Part shown: piece after piece, positions 30,647 to 61,651 of the stretch
Layout of the letters: the number at the start of each line of letters is the position of its first letter
Position numbering within the stretch: position 1 is the first letter of the stretch
Source of the DNA: Williamsia sp.
GTDB taxonomy: Bacteria; Bacteroidota; Bacteroidia; Chitinophagales; Chitinophagaceae
DNA length: 64,000 nt
NCBI GenBank assembly: GCA_015069695.1
Contig: JADCRZ010000010.1
Location: 23,194 to 87,193, forward strand
Direction: 5' to 3'
Notes under the pieces: generated by a model
Seen by the model: only the letters and a program-made list of their open reading frames with translations
Database searches by the model: none
What the model was told of the DNA's origin: nothing
Made by a program: the position numbers and the translations under genes

Positions 30647-31600
30647 ATGGCTGAACCTCAAATCAAAAAAAACAACCTTAAATCTGTATTTGGTTTCTTA
30701 AAGGAAGTATTCAGTGGTTTTAGTGACGACAAGGCAATGAAATACAGTGCTTCGCTTTCTTATTACACGGTTTTTTCCATTGCACCCATGATCATCGTCA
30801 TTATATCGGCAGCAGGAATCGTGTTTGGCCGGGAGGCGGTACAGGGACGGATATTCGACCAAATAAATGGGTTGGTAGGCGCAGAGGCTGCAAAACAAAT
30901 CCAATCAATTATCAGCAATACCCATAGTTCCGGCAACACGATCGTTGCCAGCATTGTGAGTGCAGTGGTTGTTATTATGGGAGCCACCGGCGTTTTCGGA
31001 GAGATCCAGGATTCCATCAACAGCATCTGGGGCCTGAAAAGCAAACCCAAAAGAGGCATTATCAAAATTGTATTGAACCGGGTTATCTCGTTTTCCCTGA
31101 TTATAAGCCTGGGTTTTGTTTTGATGGTTTCCCTGGCTGTCAATGCTTTTGTGTCTGTGATTACTTCCCAGCTGGCCAGCATTATCCCCGGTGTGGGTAC
31201 TTATTTTTTAATGATCGTGAACCAAGCGCTTATTTTTCTCATTATGTCTTTTATGTTCTCCGTAATCTTTAAAGTACTGCCAGACGCCAAAATCAAATGG
31301 CGGGATGTAAGCAAGGGCGCCATGCTGACTGCCATCCTGTTTATGGTGGGCAAGTACCTGATAGGCTTATACGTAGAAAAAAGCAATCTTACGTCTGTAT
31401 ATGGCGCGGCGGGATCTATTGTAATTATTATGGTGTGGGTGTATTATACCGCCGTAATTTTGTACTTTGGAGCTGAATTTACCAAAGTTTACTCTGTAAA
31501 ATACGGCAGCAAGATAGAACCAAACGATTATGCAGTGTGGGTAAAAGTAAACGAAGAAGAGCAGCCGCACCAAACCCTTGAAGAAGTAAAAACATCATAG
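30647..31600 (+). CDS. YihY/BrkB (virulence factor BrkB / RNase BN-like) family membrane protein
   Basis: MKYSASLSYYTVFSIAPMIIVIISAAG and six TM segments. Confidence 0.85.
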   Translation: MAEPQIKKNNLKSVFGFLKEVFSGFSDDKAMKYSASLSYYTVFSIAPMIIVIISAAGIVFGREAVQGRIFDQINGLVGAEAAKQIQSIISNTHSSGNTIVASIVSAVVVIMGATGVFGEIQDSINSIWGLKSKPKRGIIKIVLNRVISFSLIISLGFVLMVSLAVNAFVSVITSQLASIIPGVGTYFLMIVNQALIFLIMSFMFSVIFKVLPDAKIKWRDVSKGAMLTAILFMVGKYLIGLYVEKSNLTSVYGAAGSIVIIMVWVYYTAVILYFGAEFTKVYSVKYGSKIEPNDYAVWVKVNEEEQPHQTLEEVKTS

Positions 31601-33623: not shown

Positions 33624-34721
33624 ATGAGCACAAACGAACAGGCAGAAGACTTGCTGAACATTCCCAAAGAAGAACTTGCCGATCTGGTAAAAGATGCTGT
33701 AAAATCTGCAGAAGCCGTTAACCTGGTCTATATCAATGACGGCGAACCCGGCATCCAGCGCATCAAGAAGGGAGAGGGTTTTTCGTATGTATTCAACAAC
33801 AAGCAGCTCAAAGACAAAGCGCATATGCAAAGGATCAAAAGCCTGGTGATACCACCAGCCTGGACGAATGTCTGGATCTGCGCACAGGAAAATGGGCATC
33901 TGCAAGTGACCGGCATCGATCAGAAAAGCCGCAAACAGTACAAGTATCATCCGCTGTGGAACCAGCTTCGAAACCAAACCAAGTTTTACCGCCTGCATGA
34001 TTTCGGGAAAGCCCTGCCGGCTATGCGTTTGCAGCTGGAAAAAGATATTGCAAAGCCAGGCATGCCGGTAGAAAAAGTGCTGGCCACGGTGGTAAGCCTG
34101 ATGGAACGGACCAATATCCGGGTCGGAAATAATTTTTATGAAAAACTCTATGGCTCTTTCGGACTTACTACGTTGAAAGATAAACACGTCAAGATCAACG
34201 GTACTGAACTGCGTTTTACATTCAAGGGCAAGAAAGGAGTTCATCACGACATCAGCATCAAAAGCAAAAGAATTGCGCGGATCGTAAAAGAATGCAGGGA
34301 TATACCCGGCAAAGAATTGTTTCAGTATATCAATGATGCGGGTGAGCACAAAACCATTGATTCGGGCATGGTCAACAATTATATCCGCGAAATCAGCGGC
34401 GGCGATTTCACCGCAAAGGATTTCCGGACCTGGGCCGGCACCGTACACGCGCTGCTTGCCTTTAAAGACCTGGGCTTTGGCAGCACGCAAACAGAATCAA
34501 AAAAAAATGTGGTCGCCGCGCTCGACATCGTCTCCAAACACCTGGGCAACACCCGCACCGTCTGTAAAAAATACTACGTCCACCCCGCCCTGCTCACCCT
34601 GTATGAAGACAAAAGCCTGGAAAAATACATGGACGAGCTCAATGTGATCGAAAAGAACGACAACAAAGCTGATTTGACGGTGGAGGAAAAGGTGTTGATG
34701 AAGATCCTGTCTGAACCATGA
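33624..34721 (+). CDS. DNA topoisomerase IB (poxvirus-like bacterial TopIB)
   Basis: IKSLVIPPAWTNVWIC...GHLQVTGIDQKSRKQYKYHP.W, FTFKGKKGV, FTAKDFRTWAGT and a C-terminal CKKYYVHP (catalytic Tyr region). Confidence 0.88.
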   Translation: MSTNEQAEDLLNIPKEELADLVKDAVKSAEAVNLVYINDGEPGIQRIKKGEGFSYVFNNKQLKDKAHMQRIKSLVIPPAWTNVWICAQENGHLQVTGIDQKSRKQYKYHPLWNQLRNQTKFYRLHDFGKALPAMRLQLEKDIAKPGMPVEKVLATVVSLMERTNIRVGNNFYEKLYGSFGLTTLKDKHVKINGTELRFTFKGKKGVHHDISIKSKRIARIVKECRDIPGKELFQYINDAGEHKTIDSGMVNNYIREISGGDFTAKDFRTWAGTVHALLAFKDLGFGSTQTESKKNVVAALDIVSKHLGNTRTVCKKYYVHPALLTLYEDKSLEKYMDELNVIEKNDNKADLTVEEKVLMKILSEP

Positions 34722-34750
34722 TTTATAAGATGTCTTGAACCAGGATTACC
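34709..34750. repeat. Two half-units of the GTCTGAACC repeat family at a convergent junction
   Basis: gtctgaaccatgatttataagat followed by gtcttgaaccaggattacc. The first overlaps the TopIB stop and the second overlaps the HAD gene stop. Confidence 0.7.
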
Positions 34751-35339
34751 TGAACGGCTTGTAAAAAGACTTTGTCCCGATGGCCAGCATGGGTTTGTCG
34801 CCGCTTGTGTCTCCGTAGCAGTAGATTTCTTTGTACTCAGCCAGGTCGAATTTTTCTTTGATGCGGCAGACTTTTTCATCGCCGTGGCAGTTTTGACCGT
34901 CTATTTTGCCGGTGATCTTTCCCTCCTTTGTGGCAAGGCGGGTGCCCATCAGCCCCAAATTGTTTTGCGCAGCCCAGGGACGGATCCAGTTCTCGGCTGA
35001 AGCAGAAACGATGACCACCGTGCTGCCGGCAGCCTGCAGCTTTTTTATCTCGGCCAGGGCTTTGGGCCGCAGCAAGGCAGGCAGCTTCTGCGCAGCAAAT
35101 CCTTCGCAGCGTTGCTGAAATTGCGCAATGCTTTCACCCTTGAAAAAAAACTGCAGCACTTTTTGTTTTGCCACCCAGTTGGGGATAAGGCCCAGTTTGT
35201 AGGCAACCAGGAAGGGTGCATATATCAGGAAACCCAGGTAAAAATTGAATTCGCCCCGGTAAAATTTGATAAACTCCAGCAGGGTGTCCTTTGTGGTAAT
35301 GGTGCCGTCAAAATCGAAAAAGGCGATGCTTTTGTTCAC
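34746..35339 (-). CDS. HAD-IB family phosphatase
   Basis: GTG start. FFDFDGTIT (motif I), VVIVSAS, GDTSGDKPML. Confidence 0.85.
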   Translation of the reverse strand: MNKSIAFFDFDGTITTKDTLLEFIKFYRGEFNFYLGFLIYAPFLVAYKLGLIPNWVAKQKVLQFFFKGESIAQFQQRCEGFAAQKLPALLRPKALAEIKKLQAAGSTVVIVSASAENWIRPWAAQNNLGLMGTRLATKEGKITGKIDGQNCHGDEKVCRIKEKFDLAEYKEIYCYGDTSGDKPMLAIGTKSFYKPFR

Positions 35340-36067
35340 AGCTTTAAGTTTTTAAAGATCGCTTCCGGAACCAGCTTGATGATCAGCATGATCCAGCGCC
35401 ACATCCAGCGTACCCAAATGATATTGGTCTTGCGCTGGATCGCTGTATACACCGCCTCTCCTATCTCCGCCGGCTGTGCAGTGAGGGGCTTGGGCAATTT
35501 CAGTCCTTCCGTCATGCGTGTATAGGCAAACCCGGGCAGTACGGTCAGCACATGCACATTTTCCTTTACCAGCTTGTTTCGCAGACCGGATAAGTAAGCC
35601 GTAAACCCTGCTTTCGCGCTCCCATAAATATAATTGCTTTGCCGCCCCCGCTCTCCCGCCACCGAGCTGATGCCTGCTATAACGCCGCTCTTGCGCAGTG
35701 CATAGTGATTGCTGATGATATTGAGGATAGACACAGCGCCGGTATAATTTGTATGGATGATGCGGCTGGCTTCCTGCCAGTCGATGCGGGCCCTGTCATT
35801 TTCACCGAGGTAGCCAAATACACAGATGGTGACATCGGGTTTGGGCTGGAGTTGTTCAAAGAACAGGGCATGGGTATCAAACCTAACCGCGTCAAAAGCA
35901 TGCACGCTGCAAGGGACCTGGTAGCGGATGGCAATATCCGACTGCATGGACTGCAGATCGCTTCCGTTCCGGGCAGCCAATTGGATGCTGTATCCTTTTG
36001 AAGCAAATTTTTTTGCGATGGCCACTGCCATGTCAGAAGTGGCGCCAAGTATCAGTACTGTCGGCAT
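35336..36067 (-). CDS. Short-chain dehydrogenase/reductase, DprE2-like
   Basis: LILGATSDMAVAIAKKF and YGSAKAG (YxxxK). There is a GTGA overlap with the downstream HAD gene. Confidence 0.75.
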   Translation of the reverse strand: MPTVLILGATSDMAVAIAKKFASKGYSIQLAARNGSDLQSMQSDIAIRYQVPCSVHAFDAVRFDTHALFFEQLQPKPDVTICVFGYLGENDRARIDWQEASRIIHTNYTGAVSILNIISNHYALRKSGVIAGISSVAGERGRQSNYIYGSAKAGFTAYLSGLRNKLVKENVHVLTVLPGFAYTRMTEGLKLPKPLTAQPAEIGEAVYTAIQRKTNIIWVRWMWRWIMLIIKLVPEAIFKNLKL

Positions 36068-36130
36068 GGATCATTGTTTTAAGTAGCTGGCTGCCTGTTT
36101 GAAAGCAGGCAGCGCTGCTGGCCGCTGAAG

Positions 36131-37033
36131 TTAACTCAGCCATCCGCTCAGCAGGGTAAACTTTTTGAAATATAAAATAATATAAAAGCTGGCCATCCAA
36201 AGCACAATGGTGGTTTGAAGGAAAATATCTTTATACAGCAGCTCTGTTGGTGAGCCGGCTTTGTTTTGCACCAGGCTGATCTGCAGGTACCGCATCAGTC
36301 CGGCAATTACAAAGATGGAAGTATAGTAAAGATGATAACTCTGCAACCGCTCATATGTTCTGGGTGAAAGGGTATACATTATGTATGTTACAATAATGAC
36401 AGCACTGAACAAGCTCAGCAGAGTATTGAGAAAATCCAGGTTGTACCCCTTCACCGATCTTCTCATATCAGTACCGGTCTCCAGCTTGAGCAGGATGTCG
36501 TCCCGCCGCTTGGCGATGGCCATAAACAAGGAAAGCAGCAGCACCATCAGCGTGAGCCAGGGCGACACTTCCACGTCAGCAATATAGCCGCCCCCCTTCA
36601 GCCTTAATACAAAACCAGCGGCAATGATCAGGATGTCGAGAACAGAAATGTTTTTCAACCCGAGCGAGTAGCCCAGGTTTAAACTAAAATAAACAGCCAG
36701 GATCAGGGTGAACCGGGAGTTGCCTACGCCGGCGATAGCCAATGAAAAAGCAGTCACGAGCAACACAGCTGCAATAGCCAGTGCAACACCCGGTTTTACC
36801 TTGCCGGCAGCCAGCGGACGTTTGCTTTTTACCGGGTGCTTGCGGTCGTCTTCCCGGTCGCGGTAGTCGTTGAGAATATAGATGGTGCTTGCCGTAAAGC
36901 TAAAAGCAACAAATCCGAGCAGGAGAAGGAGCAGCTTGTGAAGGTTAAACAGATCGCCTGCAAAAAAAATAGGCAGAAACAAAAACGCGTTTTTTGCCCA
37001 GTCTTTTGGACGCAGCAATTTAATAATGTCCAT
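36131..37033 (-). CDS. UbiA-family polyprenyl-phosphate 5-phosphoribosyltransferase (decaprenyl-phosphate phosphoribosyltransferase-like)
   Basis: NDYRDREDDRKHPVKSKRPLAAG resembles the Rv3806c-type motif NDxxDxxxDRxHPxKxxRPxAxG. About 8 TM segments. Confidence 0.78.
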   Translation of the reverse strand: MDIIKLLRPKDWAKNAFLFLPIFFAGDLFNLHKLLLLLLGFVAFSFTASTIYILNDYRDREDDRKHPVKSKRPLAAGKVKPGVALAIAAVLLVTAFSLAIAGVGNSRFTLILAVYFSLNLGYSLGLKNISVLDILIIAAGFVLRLKGGGYIADVEVSPWLTLMVLLLSLFMAIAKRRDDILLKLETGTDMRRSVKGYNLDFLNTLLSLFSAVIIVTYIMYTLSPRTYERLQSYHLYYTSIFVIAGLMRYLQISLVQNKAGSPTELLYKDIFLQTTIVLWMASFYIILYFKKFTLLSGWLS

Positions 37034-37238
37034 TACAGAGATTAGGGGTTAAGACGGGGGATGTAATAAATAGAACCATTGATCTAATACTTTGCCGGTT
37101 TAAACAGATTAGGTACTTTCATTCCGTGAATGCATAAAAACCTCCTATTGAGGTAGCAATCAATGCGCAAGATAAAATACTCATGTTATTTTAACGTTAG
37201 AACATTTCTTTCATTGCCTGCCGCCAAATACCCGATAG

Positions 37239-38843
37239 ATGAAAAAATGGTTACCCCTAGCAGAACTGGTCCTGATTGTATGTTTGGCTTTGTTTCCCCT
37301 GGCGGGAGCTGTGTTTCCTTACCGGCTTAACATATTTCTTTCCTACGAAGGCGCCTACCGTTTGTATCTGGGAGAAGTGCCGTACAAAGACTTCGGCCTG
37401 CCGATGGGCTTTATGTACTGGGTGATACCAGCCTTGTTCTTCAAGCTTTTCGGTCCCTATATGATCAGCCTGGTAAAAGCCCAGGTGTTTATCAATATTG
37501 TATCCGGACTGGCATTCCGGTCTATCCTGAAGAGCTTCGGTGTTCGTCCGGGTATCCGCTTTCTCAGCGTATTGCTGTTTTGTATCTCTTATTCATTTTT
37601 AAATTATTGGCCCTGGTACAACCATACGGTGATTGTATACGAGCTGGTAGCGCTGGCCTTCCTGACACGGTTTTTCTTTACACCACCGGAACAGAAAAAA
37701 AGGACCATTTACCTGTGCTTATCCGGTGCATTTGTTTTTCTTTCTTTTTTTACCAAGCAGGATGCGGGTGCCATGGGCTTTTTAGTTTGTGTGGCACTTC
37801 TGGCGTACAATTCATTCCGGGAAAGAAAATGGCTGCAGCTCCCCCTGTTCCTGGCCAGCATGGCCGTTACTGCTGCCATCTTTGTTGTTCCCTTTCTCAA
37901 GTATGGGTTTGGGTACTGGTTCAATTACGGACAGCCACCCCATACCTCGCGCTTTTCCCTGGCTGATTTTACCGGTGAATTCTTCAACAGTTCACAGTGG
38001 CTGAAATTTTATTTCTTTTTGATTCTCTTTCTGCTTGTTGCCACAACAAAAAATTTCCGGGCCCTGCTGGCCGACAAACGCCGGATGATCTTTATCCTGC
38101 TTACCCTCGGCATGCTTACAGAAGCCACTATTTTCCAGGTTACCAGCTATATTCCGCCCGACAACAACATCTTTTTTCACAGCTTTGCCTTTGCCTTCTT
38201 ACTGGTATGGCTAGCCGATTTTCTGCCTGTGAACTGGGAAGCCCCGCCTGCCCTGCTCGCAGGTATGGCCGGTATTATGCTGTGGTGGAGCAGCGTATAT
38301 TGGAAATATCTGGAGAAGTATATCGTAAAGCCCTCCACGGTACAAACTTCCTCGGACGTGGTTACCAAAAACACGTATCTCATCTTTAAACCTGATTCGT
38401 CCGACGTGCCCATGAGTGAATGGCGGACCATTCCGCTGCCGGCATTCAGAAAGATGCTGCTGCCTGGCCCTACAGTAGACGGCATCAACAGGATCATGCA
38501 AATGAACGAAGTAAAAAAGCGGGATGCAAAGGTTCTTAATATGACGGAGCTCACGCCGCTGGCAAGGGAAATCCCCTTCACGCTTGAACGCGGCTCTTAT
38601 TATCCGCTCTGGTACCACAAGGGTGTGGGCATGTTTCAAAAGCAAACCGATATGTTCTGCAACCGGATTAAGAACAATTATTACGACCTCGTGCTTTTTG
38701 AATACATCCCCTATCTCAATAATTTTTATCCCTTCCAGGTACGCGATACCCTGTTGCAATACTACCAGCGCATTGATACCTTTACAGCACCGCGCAAACC
38801 CTCGCTGCAAGCCTGGGTAGAAGTGTATGTGCGGAAGAAATAA
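37239..38843 (+). CDS. Polytopic membrane protein, GT-C-like glycosyltransferase candidate
   Basis: At least 11 TM segments. The first loop is YRLYLGEVPYKDFGLPMGFMYW. A C-terminal soluble domain of roughly 170 aa follows. It is divergent from the UbiA operon. Confidence 0.5.
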   Translation: MKKWLPLAELVLIVCLALFPLAGAVFPYRLNIFLSYEGAYRLYLGEVPYKDFGLPMGFMYWVIPALFFKLFGPYMISLVKAQVFINIVSGLAFRSILKSFGVRPGIRFLSVLLFCISYSFLNYWPWYNHTVIVYELVALAFLTRFFFTPPEQKKRTIYLCLSGAFVFLSFFTKQDAGAMGFLVCVALLAYNSFRERKWLQLPLFLASMAVTAAIFVVPFLKYGFGYWFNYGQPPHTSRFSLADFTGEFFNSSQWLKFYFFLILFLLVATTKNFRALLADKRRMIFILLTLGMLTEATIFQVTSYIPPDNNIFFHSFAFAFLLVWLADFLPVNWEAPPALLAGMAGIMLWWSSVYWKYLEKYIVKPSTVQTSSDVVTKNTYLIFKPDSSDVPMSEWRTIPLPAFRKMLLPGPTVDGINRIMQMNEVKKRDAKVLNMTELTPLAREIPFTLERGSYYPLWYHKGVGMFQKQTDMFCNRIKNNYYDLVLFEYIPYLNNFYPFQVRDTLLQYYQRIDTFTAPRKPSLQAWVEVYVRKK

Positions 38844-38854
38844 AATGCAATCAC

Positions 38855-39439
38855 ATGAACCAGGTACTTTCCGGAAAAAAAGTAGCTGTGTTGGTAGGAG
38901 GCTCTGATCTTTTCTCCGGGTTGAGAGGAATTTCAGCAGCAACCACCCGCATCAAACAGGCTATCAAACCCTGGTACAACGATGTACTTGCCATCAACTA
39001 CAATTATTTTCTGGATTTTGGCAAAACATTGATCACAGCCAGGGAATACCTGCAAACAGTCGGGCCCATTAAACAACTTGTCCTGTATGGTTACAGCAAG
39101 GGAGGAGAAGTAGCGTTGGAACTTGCCCGTTCATTGGAGCAACAAGTATCAGTTCAGTTGCTTGTTACCATCGACATTGCCAATGGTCCCTGGTCAGACA
39201 AAATAAACAGAAGCATACCGGCTAATGTAGAGAAGGTGATCAATGTTTTTCAAAGCAACCCAAATTTATTGCGTTCAAGGGGAGCAGCTGTTTATGCAAG
39301 TGAAAACACAGCGATCCGGAATATTGATCTGACGGGAGCGCGCATTCACGAAGAAAAAGTAACACACAGCAATATAGAGATGTTGATGGCCCATCAGGTG
39401 ATCGGCTGGCTGCGGGGAGAACAGCCGGTTCATGGATAA
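38855..39439 (+). CDS. Hypothetical small alpha/beta-hydrolase-like protein
   Basis: Nucleophile-elbow-like LVLYGYSKGGEVALELA (G-x-S-x-G) and a late His (VTHSNIE). No signal peptide. It starts 12 nt after the GT-C-like gene. Confidence 0.5.
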   Translation: MNQVLSGKKVAVLVGGSDLFSGLRGISAATTRIKQAIKPWYNDVLAINYNYFLDFGKTLITAREYLQTVGPIKQLVLYGYSKGGEVALELARSLEQQVSVQLLVTIDIANGPWSDKINRSIPANVEKVINVFQSNPNLLRSRGAAVYASENTAIRNIDLTGARIHEEKVTHSNIEMLMAHQVIGWLRGEQPVHG

Positions 39440-40239
39440 AAGGCCTTGGTATGCCGCTTCAGGCGTTTTATGATTCCCTTTACTAATCCGCCATCAGCTT
39501 GTATGCGCCGGTCGTTTGTCCAGGCCAGGGCCCGAACATCCGATACCCGGTAAAGCTTCTTGGCAAAAGCGTGCCGCAGTTTGACAGCCAGCCACCCATC
39601 TTCATTGGCGCCTGGCGGGTGGTCAAAGCCTTCTACCTGGATGCCTTCCAGCCGCCGGAAACCAGAACTAAAGCCATACACATTCACCGCCTCTTCCCGC
39701 AAGCTATTCAGCCATCTTGAAACAGCCGCAACCAATTCATACCCAAAGTAAACAAGCCTTCCTGTTCCGGCAGTCGGCAAAAATGCATGCGAGCCATAAG
39801 TCAGGGCAATCTTTTGATCATCAAGGGGTGCAGTCATGAGACCGATCCAATGCGGCGGATAAATTGTATCGGCATCGGCGTTCAGGATAAGCCGGCCTTT
39901 AGCCTGCTGCAAACCCCGGTTTCTCGCCGCCGCAATACCCTGCACGGGTTCTTCCAAGCATACTGCTCCGGTGAGCCGCGCCAGCATTGCGGTCCGGTCC
40001 TGCGAGTTGTTGTTTACCACAATCACTTCAAACTTCTTATCGGTAGCCGAAGCAGCAAGCGAAGCCAGGGTTTTAAGAATATGCTGCTCTTCATTATATG
40101 CAGGAATAACAACAGAAACTTCCGGCTCTTCAGAAAAAAATTGCTGCAGCTTTGTCTTGATAAACACTGCCTGTTTCTCCAATACATCAACCGGTTGGTT
40201 GTGCACAGAGATATAAGGCGGAACAGCAATAGGACGCAT
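39430..40239 (-). CDS. Glycosyltransferase family 2
   Basis: VSVVIPAYNEEQHILKTLASL, VIVVNNNSQDRT, NADADT. Confidence 0.85.
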   Translation of the reverse strand: MRPIAVPPYISVHNQPVDVLEKQAVFIKTKLQQFFSEEPEVSVVIPAYNEEQHILKTLASLAASATDKKFEVIVVNNNSQDRTAMLARLTGAVCLEEPVQGIAAARNRGLQQAKGRLILNADADTIYPPHWIGLMTAPLDDQKIALTYGSHAFLPTAGTGRLVYFGYELVAAVSRWLNSLREEAVNVYGFSSGFRRLEGIQVEGFDHPPGANEDGWLAVKLRHAFAKKLYRVSDVRALAWTNDRRIQADGGLVKGIIKRLKRHTKAFYP

Positions 40240-42561: not shown

Positions 42562-45500
42562 ATGAAGACTTTGGCAAAACAAGCAACTATATTTCTCTCC
42601 ATCTGTTTGCTCCTTACCGGCAGCGCCTGGTCGCAGAGTGCGCTGGATTTTATAGAGAATAAAGGCCAATGGGAAAACATGATCCGGTTTAAAGGCGACC
42701 TGAGCAATGGCGCCTTTTTTTTGCGCTCAACAGGTTTTACCGTTTTACAACACAGCAGCCGCGACCTGGAAAAACTGGCGGAAGCTGCCCATGGCAAAGT
42801 GTACGACAACAGCAAGAACAATTCTGCCAGCCTGAGAACTGCTTCCAATTCGGCTGCAATGATCGGCAAACCCGCACCCGAGCCAATGGACACCGTTCAC
42901 TCGCACGCTTATACGATTGACTTTGTGGGTGCCAACGAACATCCTGAAATCATTCCGGAAAAACCACAGCCTACTTACAACAACTATTTCATCGGCGACG
43001 ATCCTTCCAAATGGAAAGGAGATTGCAAGGTGTACAATGCGGTTACCTTTAAAGATGTTTACCCGGGTATTGATGTGCGCTATTACAGCGAATCAGGCTA
43101 TCTCAAGTATGAATTTGTGGTGAACCCCGGCGCAGATGCATCGAAGATTGCGATGAAGATAGAAGGCGCCGATGGACTCAGCCTGAAGAACAACACCCTT
43201 ATCATCAAAACTTCGGTCAATGAAGTAAAAGAACTCTCGCCCTTTACCTACCAGTACACAGGCACAGAAAGAAAAGAAATCGACTGCCGCTACGTGCTGC
43301 AAGGCAATACCGTCCGGTTTTCCCTGAAAAAATATTCTTCGCAAAGCACCCTGATCATTGACCCCACTTTGATTTTCGCCAGCTTTTCAGGCAGCACTTC
43401 GGATAACTGGGGCTACACAGCAACTTATGGCAAGGACGGAAGTTTTTATGCAGGTGGAATCGTTTTCCAAAACGGTTTCCCGGTTTCCGTAGGCGCTTTT
43501 CAAACAACCTACAGAGGCTCTCAGATCAGTGAATCCGGGTTCTGGAACATGGGGATCATAAAATTCAATCCCAGCGGAAGCCAGCGTGTTTACGCCACCT
43601 ATGTCGGTGGAAGCAACAAAGACCAGCCTCACAGCTTGTTCGTTGATACCGACGGGAACCTGGTCATTGCAGGCAGAACAACGAGCGCCAACTATCCGCT
43701 GATGCCCGCCAATGCCAGCTTTGGCACCCAGCTTGGCGGATGGGACATCGTGGTTACCAAACTCAACGCCACCGGAACGGCCCTGATCGGCTCTGTACGC
43801 GTAGGCGGTTCGGGCGATGATGGATTTAATACAACAGACAGTCATACAGCTCCGGCTCCTACCGGACTGATCAACAACTATGGTGATGATGCGCGCAGTG
43901 AAGTAATCCTGGATGCCAGCAATAATATTTACGTTGCTTCCTGTACCCAATCCGGTAATTTTTATACAACAGCCGATGCACAGCAAAAAAGCTTCGGTGG
44001 GAAACAAGATGCGGTACTGCTCAAGTTGAATCCCAACTGTACTTCCGTTGTTTACAGCTCTTATCTCGGCGGCTCAGACTATGACGCCGGTTTTGTACTG
44101 GCATTGAACCCGACCACACAGGATATTTACATGGCGGGTGGAACACTGAGCAGTGATTTTCCCGGTAACAAAGCAGGCGTGTACCAGCCTGCGTTTGCGG
44201 GCGGAAGAAGTGACGGCTTTGTAGCAGAATTTTCCAACGACGGTGCTACGCTAAGAAGAACGACCTACGTAGGAACCAATGGACTGGATGTGATCTTTGG
44301 TATCCAGTTCGACAAGTTCAGCTACCCTTATATCATGGGAACCACTACAGGGACCTGGCCGGTGAAGAATGCCACGTACAGCAATCCCGGTTCCAAGCAA
44401 TTTATTACCAAGCTGGAAAAAGATCTATCAGCCATTGTATACTCTACCGTATTTGGCAACGGCTCCAGCACACCCAATATTTCGCCGGTGGCTTTCCTGG
44501 TTGACCGGTGCGAAAATATATATGTATCAGGCTGGGGTAAGGACATTATCGGCGGGTACAATCTTTCGTCTATCAATGGCATGCCCGTTACCCGCGACGC
44601 CCTGAAATCAGTTCCTGACGAATCGGAGTTTTACTTTATCGTGATCAAAAGAAATGCGACCCAGCTTTTGTACGGCACATTTTACGGACAGAACGGACGC
44701 TTTGGTGAGCACGTGGACGGAGGTACCAGCCGCTTTGATCAGAACGGGGTTATTTACCAGGCTATCTGCGCCAACTGTAAAGGACAGGATGGTCCCAAGC
44801 CGCAGTGGCCGGTTACGCCCGGTGCCTGGTGCTGCAGCGGCGGCCGTGCGGCAGCTACCACCGGCTCGGAGTGTAACCTCGCAGCCCTGAAAATATCCTT
44901 CAACTTTGCAGGCGTAGCTTCCGGTGTACGGGCTTTTATCAATGGTGTGTTTGATACATCCGGATGCGTTCCCTTGAAAGTGATGTTCAAGGATACGGTC
45001 CTGAATGCCCAGCATTATGAATGGAATTTTGGCGATGGCACACCCGATGTAGCCACCGACAGTTTTGAGATAGCGCATATCTACAACCAGATAGGATCAT
45101 ACCGCGTAAGGCTGATCGCGATTGACTCTGCTTCCTGCAACATCCGCGACACATCCTACACCACAGTCATCGTTCGCAACAACCAGGCTGTGCTTGATTT
45201 CAATCCGGTGAAGCTGCCACCTTGTGAATCGCTGACATACCGCTTCGACAATCTTTCTATTCCGCCTCCTGCCCTGCCCTTCCACGCACAGACATTTATC
45301 TGGGATTTTGGCGATAAATCACCCCGTGTTGTGGCCGGCCCCACCTCCGTTCAGCACACGTACCAGGCAGTAGGAACTTACTCCGTGCGATTGATCCTGC
45401 TTGATACCAACTATTGCAATGCACCTGATTCGTTGGTCAAAGAGCTGCGTATATCACCACAGGTAAAAGCAGAGATCAAGACACCATCGCTTGGTTGTGC

Positions 45501-46230
45501 TCCTTACCGGGCCCAGTTCACCAATACATCATTGGGCGGACAAATCTTTACCTGGAGCTTTGGTGATGGCGTGGATACTGTTACCTCAGGCAATCCTACG
45601 CACCTGTATGCGGAGCCTGGCACGTATACCGTAAAGCTGAAAGCCTACGATTCATCAACCTGTAACCTGGTTGACTCTACAGAAATTACCATTGTCGTAC
45701 AAACCAAGCCCACAGCGGCTTTCACAACAAGTCCGGCTACACCGGTGCAAAACGTTCCCATTACATTTACCAATGCTTCTATCAATGCCAGCAGGTACAA
45801 ATGGGAATTCGGAGATGGCGATAGTTTAATAACCGTTACAACAGCCGACATCCTGCACCAATACAATACAACCGGGCAGTTCAATGCCTGTTTGATCGCT
45901 TACAATGCTGCCGGATGTACCGATACGGTATGCCATGATGTGCGGACCGTCGTCGTTCCGCAGCTGGATATACCCAATGCATTTACACCGCTGGGTCCGG
46001 CGCAGGCCAATACCATCTATGTAAGAGGCTTTGCTATTGCGAAAATGCGTTTTGCCGTCTACAACCGGTTGGGACAAAAAGTGTTTGAATCAAACAACGT
46101 CAGCCAGGGATGGGATGGTAAGTTCAAAGGCGTGGTGCAACCGATGGATGTATATGCTTATACACTGGACGTGGAATTTACAGACGGTACCCGAACAACC
46201 AAAAAGGGAGACATCACCCTGATCAGATAA
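42562..46230 (+). CDS. Large secreted adhesin-like protein: beta-propeller (SBBP-like) repeats, PKD-like domains, T9SS type B (CHU_C / gliding-associated) sorting domain
   Basis: Signal peptide. Repeated WNFGDG / WDFGD / WSFGDG / WEFGDGD PKD signatures. C-terminus IPNAFTP...VYNRLGQKVFES...GWDGKFKG...VYAYTL...KGDITLIR. Confidence 0.88.
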   Translation: MKTLAKQATIFLSICLLLTGSAWSQSALDFIENKGQWENMIRFKGDLSNGAFFLRSTGFTVLQHSSRDLEKLAEAAHGKVYDNSKNNSASLRTASNSAAMIGKPAPEPMDTVHSHAYTIDFVGANEHPEIIPEKPQPTYNNYFIGDDPSKWKGDCKVYNAVTFKDVYPGIDVRYYSESGYLKYEFVVNPGADASKIAMKIEGADGLSLKNNTLIIKTSVNEVKELSPFTYQYTGTERKEIDCRYVLQGNTVRFSLKKYSSQSTLIIDPTLIFASFSGSTSDNWGYTATYGKDGSFYAGGIVFQNGFPVSVGAFQTTYRGSQISESGFWNMGIIKFNPSGSQRVYATYVGGSNKDQPHSLFVDTDGNLVIAGRTTSANYPLMPANASFGTQLGGWDIVVTKLNATGTALIGSVRVGGSGDDGFNTTDSHTAPAPTGLINNYGDDARSEVILDASNNIYVASCTQSGNFYTTADAQQKSFGGKQDAVLLKLNPNCTSVVYSSYLGGSDYDAGFVLALNPTTQDIYMAGGTLSSDFPGNKAGVYQPAFAGGRSDGFVAEFSNDGATLRRTTYVGTNGLDVIFGIQFDKFSYPYIMGTTTGTWPVKNATYSNPGSKQFITKLEKDLSAIVYSTVFGNGSSTPNISPVAFLVDRCENIYVSGWGKDIIGGYNLSSINGMPVTRDALKSVPDESEFYFIVIKRNATQLLYGTFYGQNGRFGEHVDGGTSRFDQNGVIYQAICANCKGQDGPKPQWPVTPGAWCCSGGRAAATTGSECNLAALKISFNFAGVASGVRAFINGVFDTSGCVPLKVMFKDTVLNAQHYEWNFGDGTPDVATDSFEIAHIYNQIGSYRVRLIAIDSASCNIRDTSYTTVIVRNNQAVLDFNPVKLPPCESLTYRFDNLSIPPPALPFHAQTFIWDFGDKSPRVVAGPTSVQHTYQAVGTYSVRLILLDTNYCNAPDSLVKELRISPQVKAEIKTPSLGCAPYRAQFTNTSLGGQIFTWSFGDGVDTVTSGNPTHLYAEPGTYTVKLKAYDSSTCNLVDSTEITIVVQTKPTAAFTTSPATPVQNVPITFTNASINASRYKWEFGDGDSLITVTTADILHQYNTTGQFNACLIAYNAAGCTDTVCHDVRTVVVPQLDIPNAFTPLGPAQANTIYVRGFAIAKMRFAVYNRLGQKVFESNNVSQGWDGKFKGVVQPMDVYAYTLDVEFTDGTRTTKKGDITLIR

Positions 46231-59182: not shown

Positions 59183-61651
59183 ATGAAGATCGTACGCAGC
59201 CGTAAATGGGTTTGGATTTTTTTCCTATTGTCTTCCCAGATTACGGTCGCTGGCAATACTGATTCTATGGCAGAACATCTGCCTTTTACAGATGATGCCT
59301 GGATGCGTGATACCGTTCCTGCGGTTGACACCTTTGATTTTTATGTTTCCAATCAGGGTTCCAATGCCAATAGCGGCAAATCACCCGCTTCTCCCAAACT
59401 CACGATCGACAATATCAGCAGATTGATCAATGAATATGCGGTTTCCAATAGCAAGGCTTCGCTGGGATTACAGGCGGGCAGCAATTTCAGAGAACAATTC
59501 AATATCAGCAGCAACAGTATATTAACAAGCAGTTTTTCCATGTTGTCTGAGGATAAAAAAGCACAGTTTACCGGAATGGATGTGGTAACGGACTGGCGTG
59601 CTACGACAGGTAAAACCAATACTTATGAATCTTCCATTACGCATGTAGTAGACTTTGCCAGCAATAACTACAATTGCCTGCTGGTAGCAGAAATAGACAC
59701 CATGATGGAAAAATCATATCCTGTTTCTGCCGTGCGCTATTTACGCTTTGTTTCCACACTGGATCTGTGTGAATCAACCCCGGGATCTTTTTTTATGGGT
59801 TTTGTCAACCAGAACCCCGCTCCTGTTTACATACATGCCACGCAAGGCATTCCTGGTAAAAACAAGTTCAGGTACGAAGTCGTAAAACGTCCTTATAATA
59901 TTTTCGGCTTTTACGCCAACAACAGCACTTTTGAAAATTTATTTTTGCGCTCTGCCGGCAACGGAGTGGGCATGTTGGCCGGAGGAGAGAATACGACTGT
60001 GAGGAATGTTACATTTCAAGGAGGGGGTACACACCACGCCGTTATTTACAGTGGCCGTGTTGACAAAAGCCTGTTTTTACCCGGACCCGACGGGCTTCCG
60101 GATGAAATCGGACTGGTCTTCTACAAGCCAGAAGGTATGCGAGCCCGCAATGTACTTACCAATACCCTTTTTCTTGACATCAGGAACGCTGCCTTTACCC
60201 ACACAAATGGAACTTCTGACTATAGTTCGCTAAGGGTAGATAGTGCCTATGCTTTTGCAGACACGCTCAATACAAATGCTATGTTAAGTAGCACCAACAC
60301 TGATTCTGTTATCATCTCAAACAACTATTGTTACGGATATAAAAGTTTCTGGCTGGGAATCCCTCATTACTTGAGCATACAGAACGCGACCATCAACAAC
60401 GTGTCGGAAGCAGCTATCCATTTGGGAAGTGATCTTGACATAGAATGCAATGCAACAGTGAGCAATACTTTGATCACAACCAACTGCAACGATGCAAACA
60501 AGGGATCACCTTCTTTTCAGCCTTCGGTCGGTTTCAGGTTTGCACAGAAAAGCACCACCTTGAAAGTAGCCAATACTGTTTTTTATGGCAGGTCTACATG
60601 GCATACCCAGTACGCTACGGAAACGGTTTTTGAAAATTCGCTTAACAACAGACTACAGGCATTCAACAACATCTATATCTGTGATGTAAATCCGGAAAAC
60701 TATATGCATGTGGTGAATGCAAACAATGGTACCGGCAAAGGAACTGCTTCCAATCTGGTATCTGACTACAACGTATATGTGTTGCTGAGAGGAACGATCT
60801 ATTGGACCAGTTATCCTACTTCACCGCAGGGAGATGCAAACATCTTTACCTTGCAAGACTGGCAGGCTTTCAGCGGCCAGGATAAGCACAGTATTTTTAT
60901 AGATCTTCGAAACAATCCTGCCGGACTAAAAGCAATTTTTACAGATCCGGAAAACGGTAACTGGACCCTCGCCCAAACGCCCCAGGCTGATTCTGTCAGA
61001 ATGCTAAACGCAGGCATGCTTACTCCTCCCCTCTACTATCCGCTCAGACCTGTTTACGAAGATGCATTGGATCATAACTTGCCCGGCGGATTGTCCTACT
61101 TTACCGGCAACAGGGACACCAGTCACCAGGTAAAACTGGATTGGAAAACAATCAGGGAACCAAACTTTGCCTATTTCGGCATAGAATCCAGCACGAATAA
61201 GATTGATTTTGCAAGGATAGCCAATGTAAAAACCTTGGGCAGCAACAACGACAACAGCTACACTTCTATCTTTTCAGATACAGCATCTACGCGGGTTTTT
61301 TACCGCCTGCGAATGGTAAACAGTGACAGCAGTTCTATCTTGAGCGCTGTTGCTTATGTAGACCCTTCGAAAAAAGACAGCATCATCAACGGCATCGGCA
61401 CCAATACCATCGGCATTATCCTGTATCCGAACCCGGGACAAACAAGTATAAACATCGAGCATCCTGCCAGAGAGCATGCAGAGATCAGTGTATATGATTT
61501 TATGGGCCGGTTGCTCAACCGGGTGCAGGTAGCGCAAAGGTCACTTAAGACCGTATTGCCGGTTAACGAGCTGGCGGCAGGCAAGTATATAATCCGGTGG
61601 AGAAGTGAGCGGGAAGAAAAAGCGGTCTCTTTTGTAAGGAGCGGACAATAA
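59183..61651 (+). CDS. Secreted right-handed beta-helix-like protein with T9SS type A sorting domain
   Basis: Signal peptide. Repetitive N/T/G-rich turns (NVTFQGGG, NTLFLDIRN, ATINNVS, NTLITTN). C-terminus ILYPNPG..INIEHP..ISVYDFMGRLL..GKYIIRW. Confidence 0.8.
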   Translation: MKIVRSRKWVWIFFLLSSQITVAGNTDSMAEHLPFTDDAWMRDTVPAVDTFDFYVSNQGSNANSGKSPASPKLTIDNISRLINEYAVSNSKASLGLQAGSNFREQFNISSNSILTSSFSMLSEDKKAQFTGMDVVTDWRATTGKTNTYESSITHVVDFASNNYNCLLVAEIDTMMEKSYPVSAVRYLRFVSTLDLCESTPGSFFMGFVNQNPAPVYIHATQGIPGKNKFRYEVVKRPYNIFGFYANNSTFENLFLRSAGNGVGMLAGGENTTVRNVTFQGGGTHHAVIYSGRVDKSLFLPGPDGLPDEIGLVFYKPEGMRARNVLTNTLFLDIRNAAFTHTNGTSDYSSLRVDSAYAFADTLNTNAMLSSTNTDSVIISNNYCYGYKSFWLGIPHYLSIQNATINNVSEAAIHLGSDLDIECNATVSNTLITTNCNDANKGSPSFQPSVGFRFAQKSTTLKVANTVFYGRSTWHTQYATETVFENSLNNRLQAFNNIYICDVNPENYMHVVNANNGTGKGTASNLVSDYNVYVLLRGTIYWTSYPTSPQGDANIFTLQDWQAFSGQDKHSIFIDLRNNPAGLKAIFTDPENGNWTLAQTPQADSVRMLNAGMLTPPLYYPLRPVYEDALDHNLPGGLSYFTGNRDTSHQVKLDWKTIREPNFAYFGIESSTNKIDFARIANVKTLGSNNDNSYTSIFSDTASTRVFYRLRMVNSDSSSILSAVAYVDPSKKDSIINGIGTNTIGIILYPNPGQTSINIEHPAREHAEISVYDFMGRLLNRVQVAQRSLKTVLPVNELAAGKYIIRWRSEREEKAVSFVRSGQ

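Follow-up and report, generated by a model that had tools for sequence, protein, structure and literature searches.

A probable pentofuranose-glycosylation locus of the Chitinophagaceae from which DprE1 has been lost

A soil bacterium of the Chitinophagaceae carries an operon for a UbiA-family protein, a DprE2-like SDR and a HAD-IB phosphatase, divergent from a gene for a polytopic membrane protein, and the locus raises the question of which lipid-linked pentose could be supplied where DprE1 is missing. A sequence-only reading of the window (the whole 64,000-nucleotide stretch of DNA that was analysed) had likened the operon to the mycobacterial donor pathway. The six open reading frames and the 205-bp divergent gap were confirmed against the sequence (Table 1), the motifs NDYRDREDDRKHP, GATSDMA, YGSAK and DFDGT were all found, and the letters also bear out that the SDR and HAD genes overlap by GTGA (start/stop), the latter being translationally coupled to the former. 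On the gene identities, protein fold, synteny, loss pattern and selection observed in the window and in 80 Chitinophagaceae reference loci (81 with the window), we consider it likely that the locus is a Chitinophagaceae version of an extracytoplasmic pentofuranose-glycosylation pathway.

Table 1. Positions of the features of the locus within the window
Feature	Position	Strand	Basis or remark
HAD-IB phosphatase gene	34746..35339	-	ORF; downstream of SDR gene, GTGA overlap
DprE2-like SDR gene (PRK07102 family)	35336..36067	-	ORF, between UbiA and HAD genes
UbiA-SDR junction, 63 bp	36068..36130	.	DprE1 site in 57/80 related loci
UbiA-family gene, PPPRS/DPPRS-like	36131..37033	-	ORF; first gene of operon
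Divergent intergenic region, 205 bp, between donor operon and GT-C gene	37034..37238	.	Presumed promoters, from sequence
Gene for 534-aa polytopic GT-C-fold protein	37239..38843	+	ORF; AF2 model and Foldseek
Gene for 194-aa alpha/beta-hydrolase-like protein (GYSKG, GxSxG)	38855..39439	+	ORF; accessory
GT2 glycosyltransferase gene, convergent	39430..40239	-	ORF; Pfam Glycos_transf_2; accessory

The UbiA-family protein passes one DPPRS cut-off, with 220.8 bits on the NCBIfam model NF008978 (cut-off 207), and its PDB sequence matches are restricted to the Mycobacterium tuberculosis DPPRS structures 8j8j and 8j8k (E = 1.3e-38, full length). Residues N55, D56, D59, D63 and K175-R-R-D-D179 are invariant among 67 loci, and the gene shows a dN/dS of 0.05 between DprE1-less relatives. 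Pfam names only the generic UbiA family (83 bits), and an EboC-type UbiA enzyme, Ubi-297, is known from Flavobacteria (PMC9235831), which could point to a prenyltransferase of aromatic compounds, quinones or heme (MenA/UbiA/CyoE/EboC type) with the adjoining genes as unrelated units. However, the NCBIfam models for heme O synthase, UbiA and MenA-type enzymes reach at most 36 bits against 221 for DPPRS, the PDB search returned no structure of UbiA, MenA or any other prenyltransferase, an ebo-type context is absent, and across the family the gene keeps its linkage to those for DprE1, the DprE2-like SDR and the HAD. A prenyltransferase of this kind is effectively refuted by the model scores, PDB matches and gene context, and we regard it as extremely improbable; the grouping with decaprenyl-phosphate phosphoribosyltransferase that had been proposed is upheld.

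The SDR is likewise specifically DprE2-like, with 332 bits on NF005489 (cut-off 267) and DprE2 (21gq_C; E = 6e-31, residues 3-241) as best PDB match, the next following at E = 3e-12. It scores 196.9 bits on the DprE2 model NF053786, under the cut-off of 250, and the likeness to DprE2 spans the full length, including the C-terminal tail. Residues N107, S134, Y148 and K152 are invariant (23 DprE1-less and 44 DprE1-plus loci), and the protein is predicted to be a 2'-keto-pentofuranosyl-phosphopolyprenol reductase. The third product of the operon is, as had been read from its motifs, a HAD-IB protein (TIGR01490, 133 bits, cut-off 98.3; Pfam HAD, E = 7e-32) with intact catalytic motifs, DxDGT and GDxxxD being invariant across the compared loci. 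Like those of the UbiA protein and the SDR, this family assignment lies well beyond chance. Its gene is syntenic in 67-68/80 loci and has a dN/dS of 0.08 between DprE1-less relatives, and the protein does not match NF006088, the model for HAD-UbiA fusions. The enzyme is predicted to take the 5'-phosphate off polyprenyl-P-ribose-5-P, by analogy with Citrobacter ORF15, in which a HAD 'PRP' domain and the PPPRS form one fusion protein (PMC11127046).

Sequence searches with the 534-aa protein against Pfam, NCBIfam and the PDB gave no match, and no sequence relationship was found with the protein encoded at 5982-7532, earlier noted as a second GT-C-like protein. The proposed GT-C character of the 534-aa protein is supported by its AF2 model (pLDDT 79.4, pTM 0.84), for which the top twelve Foldseek matches are all GT-C enzymes (probability 0.99-1.0), among them ArnT (5f15), AftA (8if8), STT3, AglB, AftD, ALG3, PglB and DPY19. 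The protein has some 11 TM helices, and its C-terminal part (residues ~395-534) forms an alpha/beta domain that is probably periplasmic. Distant members of its family reach 25.7 bits on PMT_2 (cut-off 26.1), and the family is marked by conserved motifs of its own (EGAYR, PYxDFG, PWYN, KQD and YWFNxGQ), while the Asp that follows TM1 in distant members is an Asn in the Chitinophagaceae clade. Its gene shows a dN/dS of 0.053 between DprE1-less relatives. The modelled fold is consistent with a GT-C transferase of an unannotated family, predicted to use a lipid-linked pentofuranose.

The UbiA-(DprE1)-SDR-HAD order is kept in 67-74/81 loci and the GT-C gene is divergent from the operon in 54-61/80, although a GT-C near the operon is absent in approximately a quarter of the loci; the genes form a unit conserved family-wide. 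The module is compact and stand-alone, flanked by RecG and Top1B. No gene for a MATE, SMR or GtrA flippase was found in the window, nor is one conserved close to the module across the loci, so that the published system described below lacks its third component here. Two further neighbours are accessory rather than core. The 194-aa GYSKG protein, with weak Pfam Thioesterase and Mbeg1-like matches only, is clade-specific, its gene (dN/dS 0.15) being limited to the closest relatives L002, L082 and L083 and absent from L084, while the GT2 gene (Glycos_transf_2, E = 6e-25) occurs in a subset of 22-23/80 loci, whatever their DprE1 status.

The absence of a DprE1-like gene from the 64 kb, as claimed from the open reading frames, was confirmed by tblastn, in which two DprE1 orthologues from Chitinophagaceae found no match better than E = 2, and by a Pfam scan, in which no candidate gene of the window matched FAD_binding_4. 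This absence is a secondary loss and not a primitive DprE1-less design, since most relatives have DprE1 within the operon: an orthologue lies between the UbiA and SDR genes in 57/80 loci, its start and stop codons overlapping or abutting those of its neighbours. The orthologue at L003:10885-12219 (444 aa) reaches 423 bits on NF053785, and its match to PDB DprE1 (4aut) has E = 5.6e-85. DprE1-less loci fall into at least six clades of a neighbour-joining tree, one of ten species, with junctions of 0-143 bp that differ from clade to clade, and DprE1 was cleanly deleted from this position in at least six lineages, that of the window among them. No candidate replacement oxidase was found within 10 kb on either side of any DprE1-less locus. 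Beyond the window, DprE1 was sought on the 6.25-Mb chromosome of the nearest relative with a complete genome and on the 83-442-kb contigs of the window's clade, and no orthologue of at least 74% identity was found on either.

Frameshifts in DprE1 at three loci could suggest that operons without DprE1 are remnants in decay or products of faulty assembly. Those of L069 and L076 are long-read assembly errors, however, since RecG and SDR are struck as well, together with the GT-C gene in L069. Furthermore, UbiA, SDR and HAD are full-length at all DprE1-less loci, with dN/dS of at most 0.09 in the closest comparisons (0.04-0.045 for the housekeeping genes RecG and Top1B), and the same arrangement recurs in independent assemblies of the window's clade (L001, L002, L082, L083 and L084), so that an assembly artefact is not the explanation. 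Decay or artefact is refuted by these data on selection and replication, and we give it next to no credence.

From these observations we infer the chemical steps, lipid carrier, topology and acceptor of the pathway as follows. By orthology with DPPRS/PPPRS, the UbiA enzyme would move ribose-5-phosphate from PRPP onto a polyprenyl phosphate, probably undecaprenyl-P, at the cytoplasmic face, and the HAD-IB protein would, by analogy, strip the 5'-phosphate to give polyprenyl-P-ribofuranose. In most relatives the DprE1 of the operon would then oxidise C2' and the DprE2-like SDR reduce the keto sugar, yielding polyprenyl-P-arabinofuranose. The donor may be flipped by a transporter encoded away from the module, and the divergent GT-C would place the sugar on an envelope glycan or protein.

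With DprE1 lost, the SDR constrained and no residue in SDR, HAD or GT-C discriminating between DprE1-less and DprE1-plus loci, the donor of the window's lineage may be ribofuranose, arabinofuranose that depends on an unlinked oxidase, or a product of epimerisation by the SDR alone; the alternatives of the sequence-only reading (an oxidase elsewhere, or an end at ribofuranose or another pentose) remain the live ones, and neither biochemical nor glycan-composition evidence is known for a member of the Chitinophagaceae. We think that the keto-reduction step is still in use in the DprE1-less lineage, because the SDR is catalytically intact, strongly constrained and without lineage-specific change. 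Oxidation of C2' by an unlinked oxidase elsewhere in the genome is a plausible if tentative reading. Were the pathway to end at polyprenyl-P-ribofuranose, the loss of DprE1 would represent a switch from an arabinofuranose to a ribofuranose glycan, and the SDR would be kept for another substrate or for a structural role in a UbiA/HAD complex. Such a switch fits clean, recurrent loss in at least six clades under diversifying selection on a surface epitope, the precedents for epimerase loss and donor-promiscuous GT-Cs (PMC11127046), the lack of an oxidase replacement nearby or a close relocated DprE1 orthologue in the sequences searched, and GT-C residues that do not change with DprE1 status, compatible with a promiscuous transferase. 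A reductase without a keto substrate should decay, yet the SDR is retained by all 23 DprE1-less loci examined, its catalytic and cofactor residues are unchanged in each, and a dN/dS of 0.055-0.068 between DprE1-less relatives indicates strong purifying selection; a ribofuranose end product is possible but somewhat doubtful.

The same constraint on the SDR, and its similarity in DprE1-plus and DprE1-less loci, which suggests that one activity suffices in both, would also suit a stand-alone epimerase that oxidises C2' with bound NAD(P)+ and re-reduces it from the opposite face, making DprE1 dispensable. A single SDR, Citrobacter ORF13, converts undecaprenyl-P-ribofuranose to xylofuranose according to genetics (PMC11127046), but it is an extended GalE-type SDR and not a DprE2-type classical SDR. 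M. tuberculosis DprE2 needs the keto intermediate made by DprE1, inhibition of which by BTZ abolishes the DprE2 assay signal (PMC9993113), and retention of DprE1 by 57/80 relatives argues that it is not generally dispensable. We therefore regard epimerisation by the SDR alone as unlikely.

Three-component extracytoplasmic pentofuranose glycosylation systems, into which the module fits, were described in 2024 by Kelly et al. (PMC11127046), with no Bacteroidota example among them. Citrobacter youngae O1/O2 (ORF12-15; GT136) shares with the window a UbiA-family PPPRS using PRPP with a HAD-superfamily phosphatase, a GT-C of ~11 TM helices with an extra C-terminal domain and a lipid-linked donor, and a pentose set by an optional epimerase module whose loss brings glycan variation, loss of the orf13 epimerase turning O2 (Xylf) into O1 (Ribf) (PMC11127046). 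In the window, by contrast, the phosphatase is a HAD-IB protein in its own right, whereas that of Citrobacter forms the N-terminal part of the PPPRS. A MATE flippase is absent from the vicinity, only the DprE2 half is left of an epimerase module of the DprE1/DprE2 type, the GT-C could not be placed in any family by sequence, and the module lies between RecG and Top1B, outside any ABC-transporter O-antigen locus.

The mycobacterial decaprenyl-phospho-arabinose pathway comprises the DPPRS Rv3806c, the phosphatase Rv3807c, DprE1 (Rv3790), DprE2 (Rv3791) and the Emb/Aft GT-C arabinosyltransferases. The UbiA protein and the SDR align end to end with Rv3806c (8j8j, E = 1e-38) and DprE2 (E = 6e-31), respectively, the DprE1 of relatives matches PDB DprE1 (E = 6e-85), and the structures that resemble the GT-C most include AftA and AftD. 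However, the phosphatase is a soluble HAD-IB protein and not PAP2-type, DprE1, essential in mycobacteria, is absent, undecaprenyl phosphate probably replaces decaprenyl phosphate as the carrier, one small GT-C stands in place of the Emb/Aft battery, and the host is a diderm with a T9SS and without known arabinogalactan. ArnT, of the ArnT/PMT_2 enzymes (GT83/GT39-type), is the best Foldseek match of the GT-C, but the window protein has no PMT_2 match, even distant family members staying just under threshold, and the family differs in its own motifs, with the Asn after TM1 in its Chitinophagaceae clade. Pilin D-arabinofuranosylation of the Pseudomonas aeruginosa PA7 type, a Gram-negative precedent as cited in PMC11127046, is there outlined as combining a PPPRS, DprE1/E2 homologues, a GT-C (TfpW) and a stand-alone phosphatase that belongs to another structural family; it modifies pilin and has DprE1 as well as DprE2, whereas the window has neither a pilin context nor DprE1. 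The claim that a furanosyl glycan is uncharacterised in Gram-negative Bacteroidota stands for the phylum and the variant, but the general system has already been described in Gram-negatives (PMC11127046). The locus would accordingly bring a known kind of pathway into a phylum without an earlier description of it, in a form from which DprE1 is gone while its partner reductase is held under strong selection.

All six open reading frames that the sequence-only reading had assigned to the operon and its flank lie at exactly the coordinates it gave, the GTGA in which the SDR stop codon overlaps the GTG start of HAD can be read in the sequence, and the claimed divergent gap of 205 bp separates the UbiA gene from that of a 534-aa polytopic protein; the finding as a whole proved real and correctly read. 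Downstream of the 534-aa gene are found the gene for a 194-aa GxSxG protein and then a convergent GT2. The gene directly downstream of the operon encodes a bacterial type IB topoisomerase (Top1B; Top1B_N_bact and Topoisom_I domains), with this synteny occurring only in the close relatives of the window. A scan for the Bacteroidota -7 promoter motif returned 37 matches versus 47 expected.

Coordinates of the features discussed, and dN/dS between the window and the related DprE1-less loci L082 and L083 (dS approximately 1.0-1.4)
Feature	Position	Strand	dN/dS	Description
UbiA	36131-37033	minus	0.05	operon gene
SDR	35336-36067	minus	0.055-0.068	operon gene
HAD	34746-35339	minus	0.08	operon gene, GTG start
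GT-C	37239-38843		0.053	534-aa protein, divergent
Top1B	33624-34721		0.045	type IB topoisomerase
RecG			0.04	
GT2			0.13	convergent
GxSxG gene			0.15	194-aa protein
516-aa protein	5982-7532			polytopic
BrkB/YihY-like gene	30647-31600			
T9SS-tailed secreted proteins	42562-46230; 59183-61651			

The label Williamsia sp. evidently reflects a mis-binned contig, with the window being of Chitinophagaceae origin, as indicated by its T9SS genes and cargo, its GC content of approximately 0.48 and its close homologues, all of which derive from Chitinophagaceae genomes (85-92 % identity). Because a DPPRS gene is nothing unexpected in a Corynebacteriales bin, the mis-binning easily escapes notice. NCBI proteins with 100 % identity (P0001/P0121; 199,190-bp contig) are labelled 'MAG: Williamsia sp.' (Actinomycetota), and comparable mislabels were seen for the related loci L051 ('Citrobacter freundii') and L066 ('Bordetella parapertussis') and for protein P0155 ('Gemmatimonadaceae'). 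Surface-glycan functions are encoded in the initial 28 kb, namely Acyl_transf_3, a GT4-type enzyme, a Wzy_C protein, KdtA, DegT, two UDP-sugar dehydrogenases and rmlBCD-type genes. The Wzy_C protein is adjoined by a 516-aa polytopic protein, presumably an envelope-glycan membrane protein, which the sequence-only reading took for a second GT-C-like protein. Its TM1 is followed by a YPLDDTF loop, and approximately 150 aa at its C-terminus form a soluble domain. Searches of Pfam, NCBIfam and the PDB gave no match for it, and comparison with the 534-aa family showed no relationship (hhalign probability 0.2; HMM searches negative); its single-sequence model (pLDDT 45.6) is too poor to use.

The UbiA protein passes the cut-off of the NCBIfam model NF008978 for decaprenyl-phosphate phosphoribosyltransferase (DPPRS; EC 2.4.2.45) (220.8 bits; cut-off 207) and scores below those of two further DPPRS models (NF008977, 211.7 versus 234; NF008976, 174.9 versus 474). 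Models for heme O synthase and 4-hydroxybenzoate prenyltransferase give at most 36 bits and the best non-DPPRS-type NCBIfam models at most 50 bits, while the only PDB sequence matches are those of the Mycobacterium tuberculosis DPPRS (8j8j/8j8k; E = 1.3e-38), aligned end to end. By both PDB matches and NCBIfam scores the protein is thus nearer to DPPRS than to MenA, UbiA, CyoE or other prenyltransferases. Residues N55, D56, D59 and D63, together with K175-RRDD-179, are invariant in 67/67 loci, and the conserved motif residues line up with NDVRDVEADREHP in the M. tuberculosis enzyme. An NDxxDxxxD cytoplasmic-loop motif and a second basic/acidic motif are essential in Rv3806c and in ORF15, the HAD-fused enzyme of Citrobacter youngae (PMC11127046). 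Three conservative positions of UbiA differ by DprE1 status and follow phylogeny. Identity as an EboC/Ubi-297-type aromatic prenyltransferase (PMC9235831) was rejected, as these represent another UbiA group in another gene context.

Of the HAD-UbiA fusion model NF006088, positions 195-440 align with the UbiA protein, whereas no part is matched at E ≤ 0.01 by the HAD protein. The latter passes the HAD-IB model TIGR01490 (133.2 bits; cut-off 98.3) and retains intact motifs I and IV (D9xD11GT and G176-D177...D181, both invariant), while its operon position suggests a role as phosphoribose phosphatase (PRP). The active-site motifs of HAD and UbiA are invariant in DprE1-less and DprE1-plus loci alike, that is, in related loci without and with a DprE1 orthologue between the UbiA and SDR genes.

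The SDR passes NF005489/PRK07102 (332 bits; cut-off 267), with the DprE2 model NF053786 as its next best model, at 196.9 bits short of the cut-off of 250; the SDR of a DprE1-plus relative likewise remains below this cut-off (194 bits). Its best PDB sequence match is the classical SDR DprE2, a decaprenylphospho-2'-keto-pentofuranose reductase (21gq_C; E = 6e-31; residues 3-241 on 11-252), with the runner-up at E = 3e-12, and the resemblance is full-length, C-terminal tail included. The catalytic tetrad (N107, S134, Y148, K152) is unchanged across 23/23 DprE1-less and 44/44 DprE1-plus loci, and so is the Gly-rich motif. The description of the SDR as DprE2-like is therefore borne out by the end-to-end match and the intact tetrad. 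The orphan SDR of the DprE1-less lineage is not decaying (table), and no columns separate DprE1-plus from DprE1-less loci in the SDR, HAD or GT-C alignments.

The 534-aa protein has no sequence match in Pfam, NCBIfam or the PDB, and its approximately 2,000 homologues, which are all named 'hypothetical', lack Pfam domains. With 37 of these homologues as input, AlphaFold2 gave a model (pLDDT 79.4; pTM 0.84) that comprises approximately eleven TM helices, helical elements in the loop following TM1 and a C-terminal alpha/beta domain at approximately 395-534. Structure prediction agrees with the proposed GT-C assignment: the top twelve Foldseek matches in the PDB are all GT-C enzymes (probability 0.99-1.0; TM-scores 0.36-0.51), including ArnT (5f15), AftA (8if8; TM 0.51), yeast STT3, AglB, AftD, ALG3, PglB and DPY19, with one stray transporter at rank 13 and Pmt enzymes below. 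An exhaustive profile search recovered only 598 representative clusters for the family, and distant full-length members score 25.7 bits against Pfam PMT_2, below the cut-off of 26.1, which connects the family with GT-C by sequence as well. Conserved motifs across the family include EGAYR, PYxDFG, PWYN, KQD and YWFNxGQ, and two acidic residues, E37 and D51, are invariant throughout. Distant members carry an Asp (FRDY) directly after TM1, where the catalytic acid of a GT-C usually lies, and at this position the UbiA-linked Chitinophagaceae clade has an invariant Asn31 (YRLN). On the evidence of the model, the 534-aa proteins appear to form a GT-C family of their own and are likely to be pentofuranosyltransferases; by the Pfam, NCBIfam and PDB sequence searches the window protein falls into no named family such as PMT_2/GT39-83, GT87, GT53 or GT85.

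Among 185,579 species genomes scanned, at least 411 encode a relative of the UbiA protein, and the best 80 of these 411 are all Chitinophagaceae, with cultured carriers including strains of Puia, Chitinophaga, Pinibacter, Parafilimonas, Paraflavitalea, Pseudoflavitalea and Phnomibacter. On the basis of tblastn and ORF clustering, UbiA was counted in 80-81 loci, the SDR in 69-74, HAD in 67-68 and the divergently adjacent 534-aa GT-C in 54-61, so that the operon and the GT-C are linked across Chitinophagaceae loci. The GT2 was counted in only 22-23 loci and the GxSxG gene is limited to the closest relatives. The most reduced form of the module is found in a Puia clade (L038, L040 and L071, of which L040 is the cultured type strain Puia dinghuensis CGMCC 1.15448), where UbiA-SDR-HAD is kept, DprE1 and the 534-aa GT-C are both absent within 10 kb and RecG abuts the UbiA gene. 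Secreted proteins with T9SS tails are grouped near the module, both in the window and downstream of HAD in loci L010-L080. In 33 loci RecG is followed by a gene for a DUF7948-PKD-CHU_C protein, and in 35 loci esterase-PKD-Por_Secre_tail proteins are encoded convergently downstream of HAD. These T9SS-tailed proteins could be acceptors or mere neighbours.

The claim that DprE1, the FAD-dependent decaprenylphosphoribose 2'-oxidase, is missing from the 64 kb was also sustained, with a best tblastn E-value of 2 and no FAD_binding_4 Pfam match in the window. In many related loci the SDR starts approximately 1.35 kb after UbiA rather than immediately, and the gap is occupied by a 444-aa ORF, the start of which overlaps the UbiA stop. 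This ORF is a DprE1 orthologue (NF053785, 423 bits; PDB DprE1 4aut, E = 5.6e-85), present in 57/80 related loci and missing from 23 loci and from the window. DprE1-plus strains include Chitinophaga cymbidii KCTC 23738, C. barathri and Pinibacter aurantiacus, while OZ241749.1, OY970066.1, JASGHP010000001.1, JASGHY010000001.1 and Puia dinghuensis CGMCC 1.15448 are DprE1-less. The commonest Chitinophagaceae operon is thus UbiA-DprE1-DprE2-HAD with GT-C, on paper a complete arabinofuranose-donor pathway. When the UbiA, SDR and HAD proteins were concatenated and a neighbour-joining tree was built, the DprE1-less loci split into no fewer than six distinct clades lying within the DprE1-plus loci, with one clade holding ten species, and their UbiA-SDR junctions (0-143 bp) show clade-specific differences. 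Nested clades with differing junctions fit a history in which DprE1 was cleanly deleted several times, not one in which it was inserted again and again at a single position, and the window thus represents a recurrent, secondary loss of DprE1. The DprE1-less arrangement is shared by each of the four relatives nearest to it, which show 85-92 % UbiA identity and lie on contigs between 83 kb and 6.25 Mb long. Apparent DprE1 pseudogenes in loci L069 and L076 were dismissed as long-read MAG assembly errors, as the SDR and RecG are frameshifted too, along with the GT-C in L069; in locus L070 the split is confined to DprE1, and it too was counted as DprE1-plus.

Until now the pathway had been described for the arabinan of mycobacteria, the pilin of Pseudomonas and O-antigen side chains of enterobacteria, and DprE1 and DprE2, both tuberculosis drug targets, are viewed as an obligate pair. 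In Citrobacter youngae O1/O2, side chains of alpha-ribofuranose or alpha-xylofuranose are attached periplasmically by means of a HAD-fused UbiA-family polyprenyl-phosphoribose synthase (PPPRS), a MATE flippase and a GT-C founding GT136, with the pentose set by a single SDR epimerase (ORF13), the loss of which turns O2 into O1, while DprE1/E2 homologues go with arabinofuranose-containing glycans (Kelly et al., PNAS 2024; PMC11127046). The examples in that study comprise Citrobacter, Stenotrophomonas, Rathayibacter, Xanthomonas, Bacillus and Pseudomonas, with no mention of Bacteroidota in its text or supplement, and a literature search on the DprE1/PPPRS pathway or furanose glycans in Chitinophagaceae/Bacteroidota found nothing. 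The Chitinophagaceae module would work in a similar manner to these three-component pentofuranose systems and the mycobacterial DPA pathway. In comparison with the former, the PPPRS and GT-C are linked in the window, whereas a dedicated flippase was not found alongside: no MATE, SMR or GtrA-like transporter occurs in the window, and none is conserved within 10 kb either side of the module. The BrkB/YihY-like gene was rejected as a flippase candidate, its synteny being confined to the closest relatives. Further differences are that the HAD-IB phosphatase stands alone, that the GT-C belongs to a family without Pfam or NCBIfam annotation, that the module is compact and placed between RecG and Top1B, outside any O-antigen locus, and that the lineage of the window has only the DprE2 half of the epimerase.

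The general mechanism, from PRPP to GT-C transfer, is well supported by orthology, fold and synteny and is probably correct, with its chemical steps predicted throughout. The UbiA enzyme would convert PRPP and polyprenyl-P to polyprenyl-P-ribose-5-P, which HAD would dephosphorylate; the sugar may then be epimerised at C2', and the lipid-linked donor would be flipped and moved by the GT-C onto some envelope acceptor.

The DprE2 reaction of M. tuberculosis relies on DprE1 making the keto intermediate (PMC9993113), which leaves the conservation of the orphan SDR to be explained. It is possible, if far from assured, that an unlinked oxidase keeps epimerisation going in the lineage of the window, in which case the finding shrinks to a routine member of a known pathway type. 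Simple relocation is countered by the failure to find a nearby or closely related oxidase: neither a replacement oxidase nor any gained gene family occurs within 10 kb either side of DprE1-less loci. When the DprE1 of a relative was compared with 5.8 billion proteins, none of the best 120 matches (all ≥ 74 % identity) was on contigs of the window's clade, the complete 6.25-Mb chromosome OZ241749.1 included, or on three other multi-megabase DprE1-less contigs, which argues against a recently relocated orthologue in this clade, whereas a divergent paralogue could lie below this identity range. At 1-116 in the related locus L084, beyond PorP/SprF, lies a 474-aa gene with FAD_binding_4 and FAD-oxidase_C domains, with no counterpart in the window; being GlcD-type rather than DprE1-like, it was rejected as a DprE1 candidate.

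That the pathway instead halts at ribofuranose, with the SDR retained for another role, is somewhat doubtful, and the constraint on the SDR speaks against simple truncation. Epimerisation by the SDR only is considered unlikely for the lineage of the window, and the small remaining probability falls to another end product. For the Chitinophagaceae more broadly, it is rather improbable, though worth considering, that polyprenyl-P pentofuranose is epimerised without DprE1, either by the SDR alone or by a non-DprE1 oxidase feeding it. Such DprE1-independent epimerisation, if true, would account for the at least six DprE1 losses with the SDR under housekeeping-level constraint, and would represent the first DprE1-independent route to lipid-linked arabinofuranose (or another ribose epimer), with a previously unrecognised GT-C family.

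The pathway type is already known and the UbiA gene is auto-annotated by pipelines, whereas the conserved Bacteroidota module, the new GT-C family and the recurrent loss of DprE1 with DprE2 kept appear undescribed, and each of them can be tested directly in available cultured carriers. The lipid-linked pentofuranose pathway starting from PRPP is thereby extended to the Bacteroidota, with relatives in at least 411 species genomes, and an unannotated GT-C family of approximately 600 representative clusters is pinpointed as a likely pentofuranosyltransferase. Furthermore, DprE1-plus and DprE1-less sister lineages which all keep DprE2 constitute a natural experiment, and an account of what keeps a DprE2-type enzyme in use once DprE1 is gone would bear on both its enzymology and the evolution of surface-glycan diversity.
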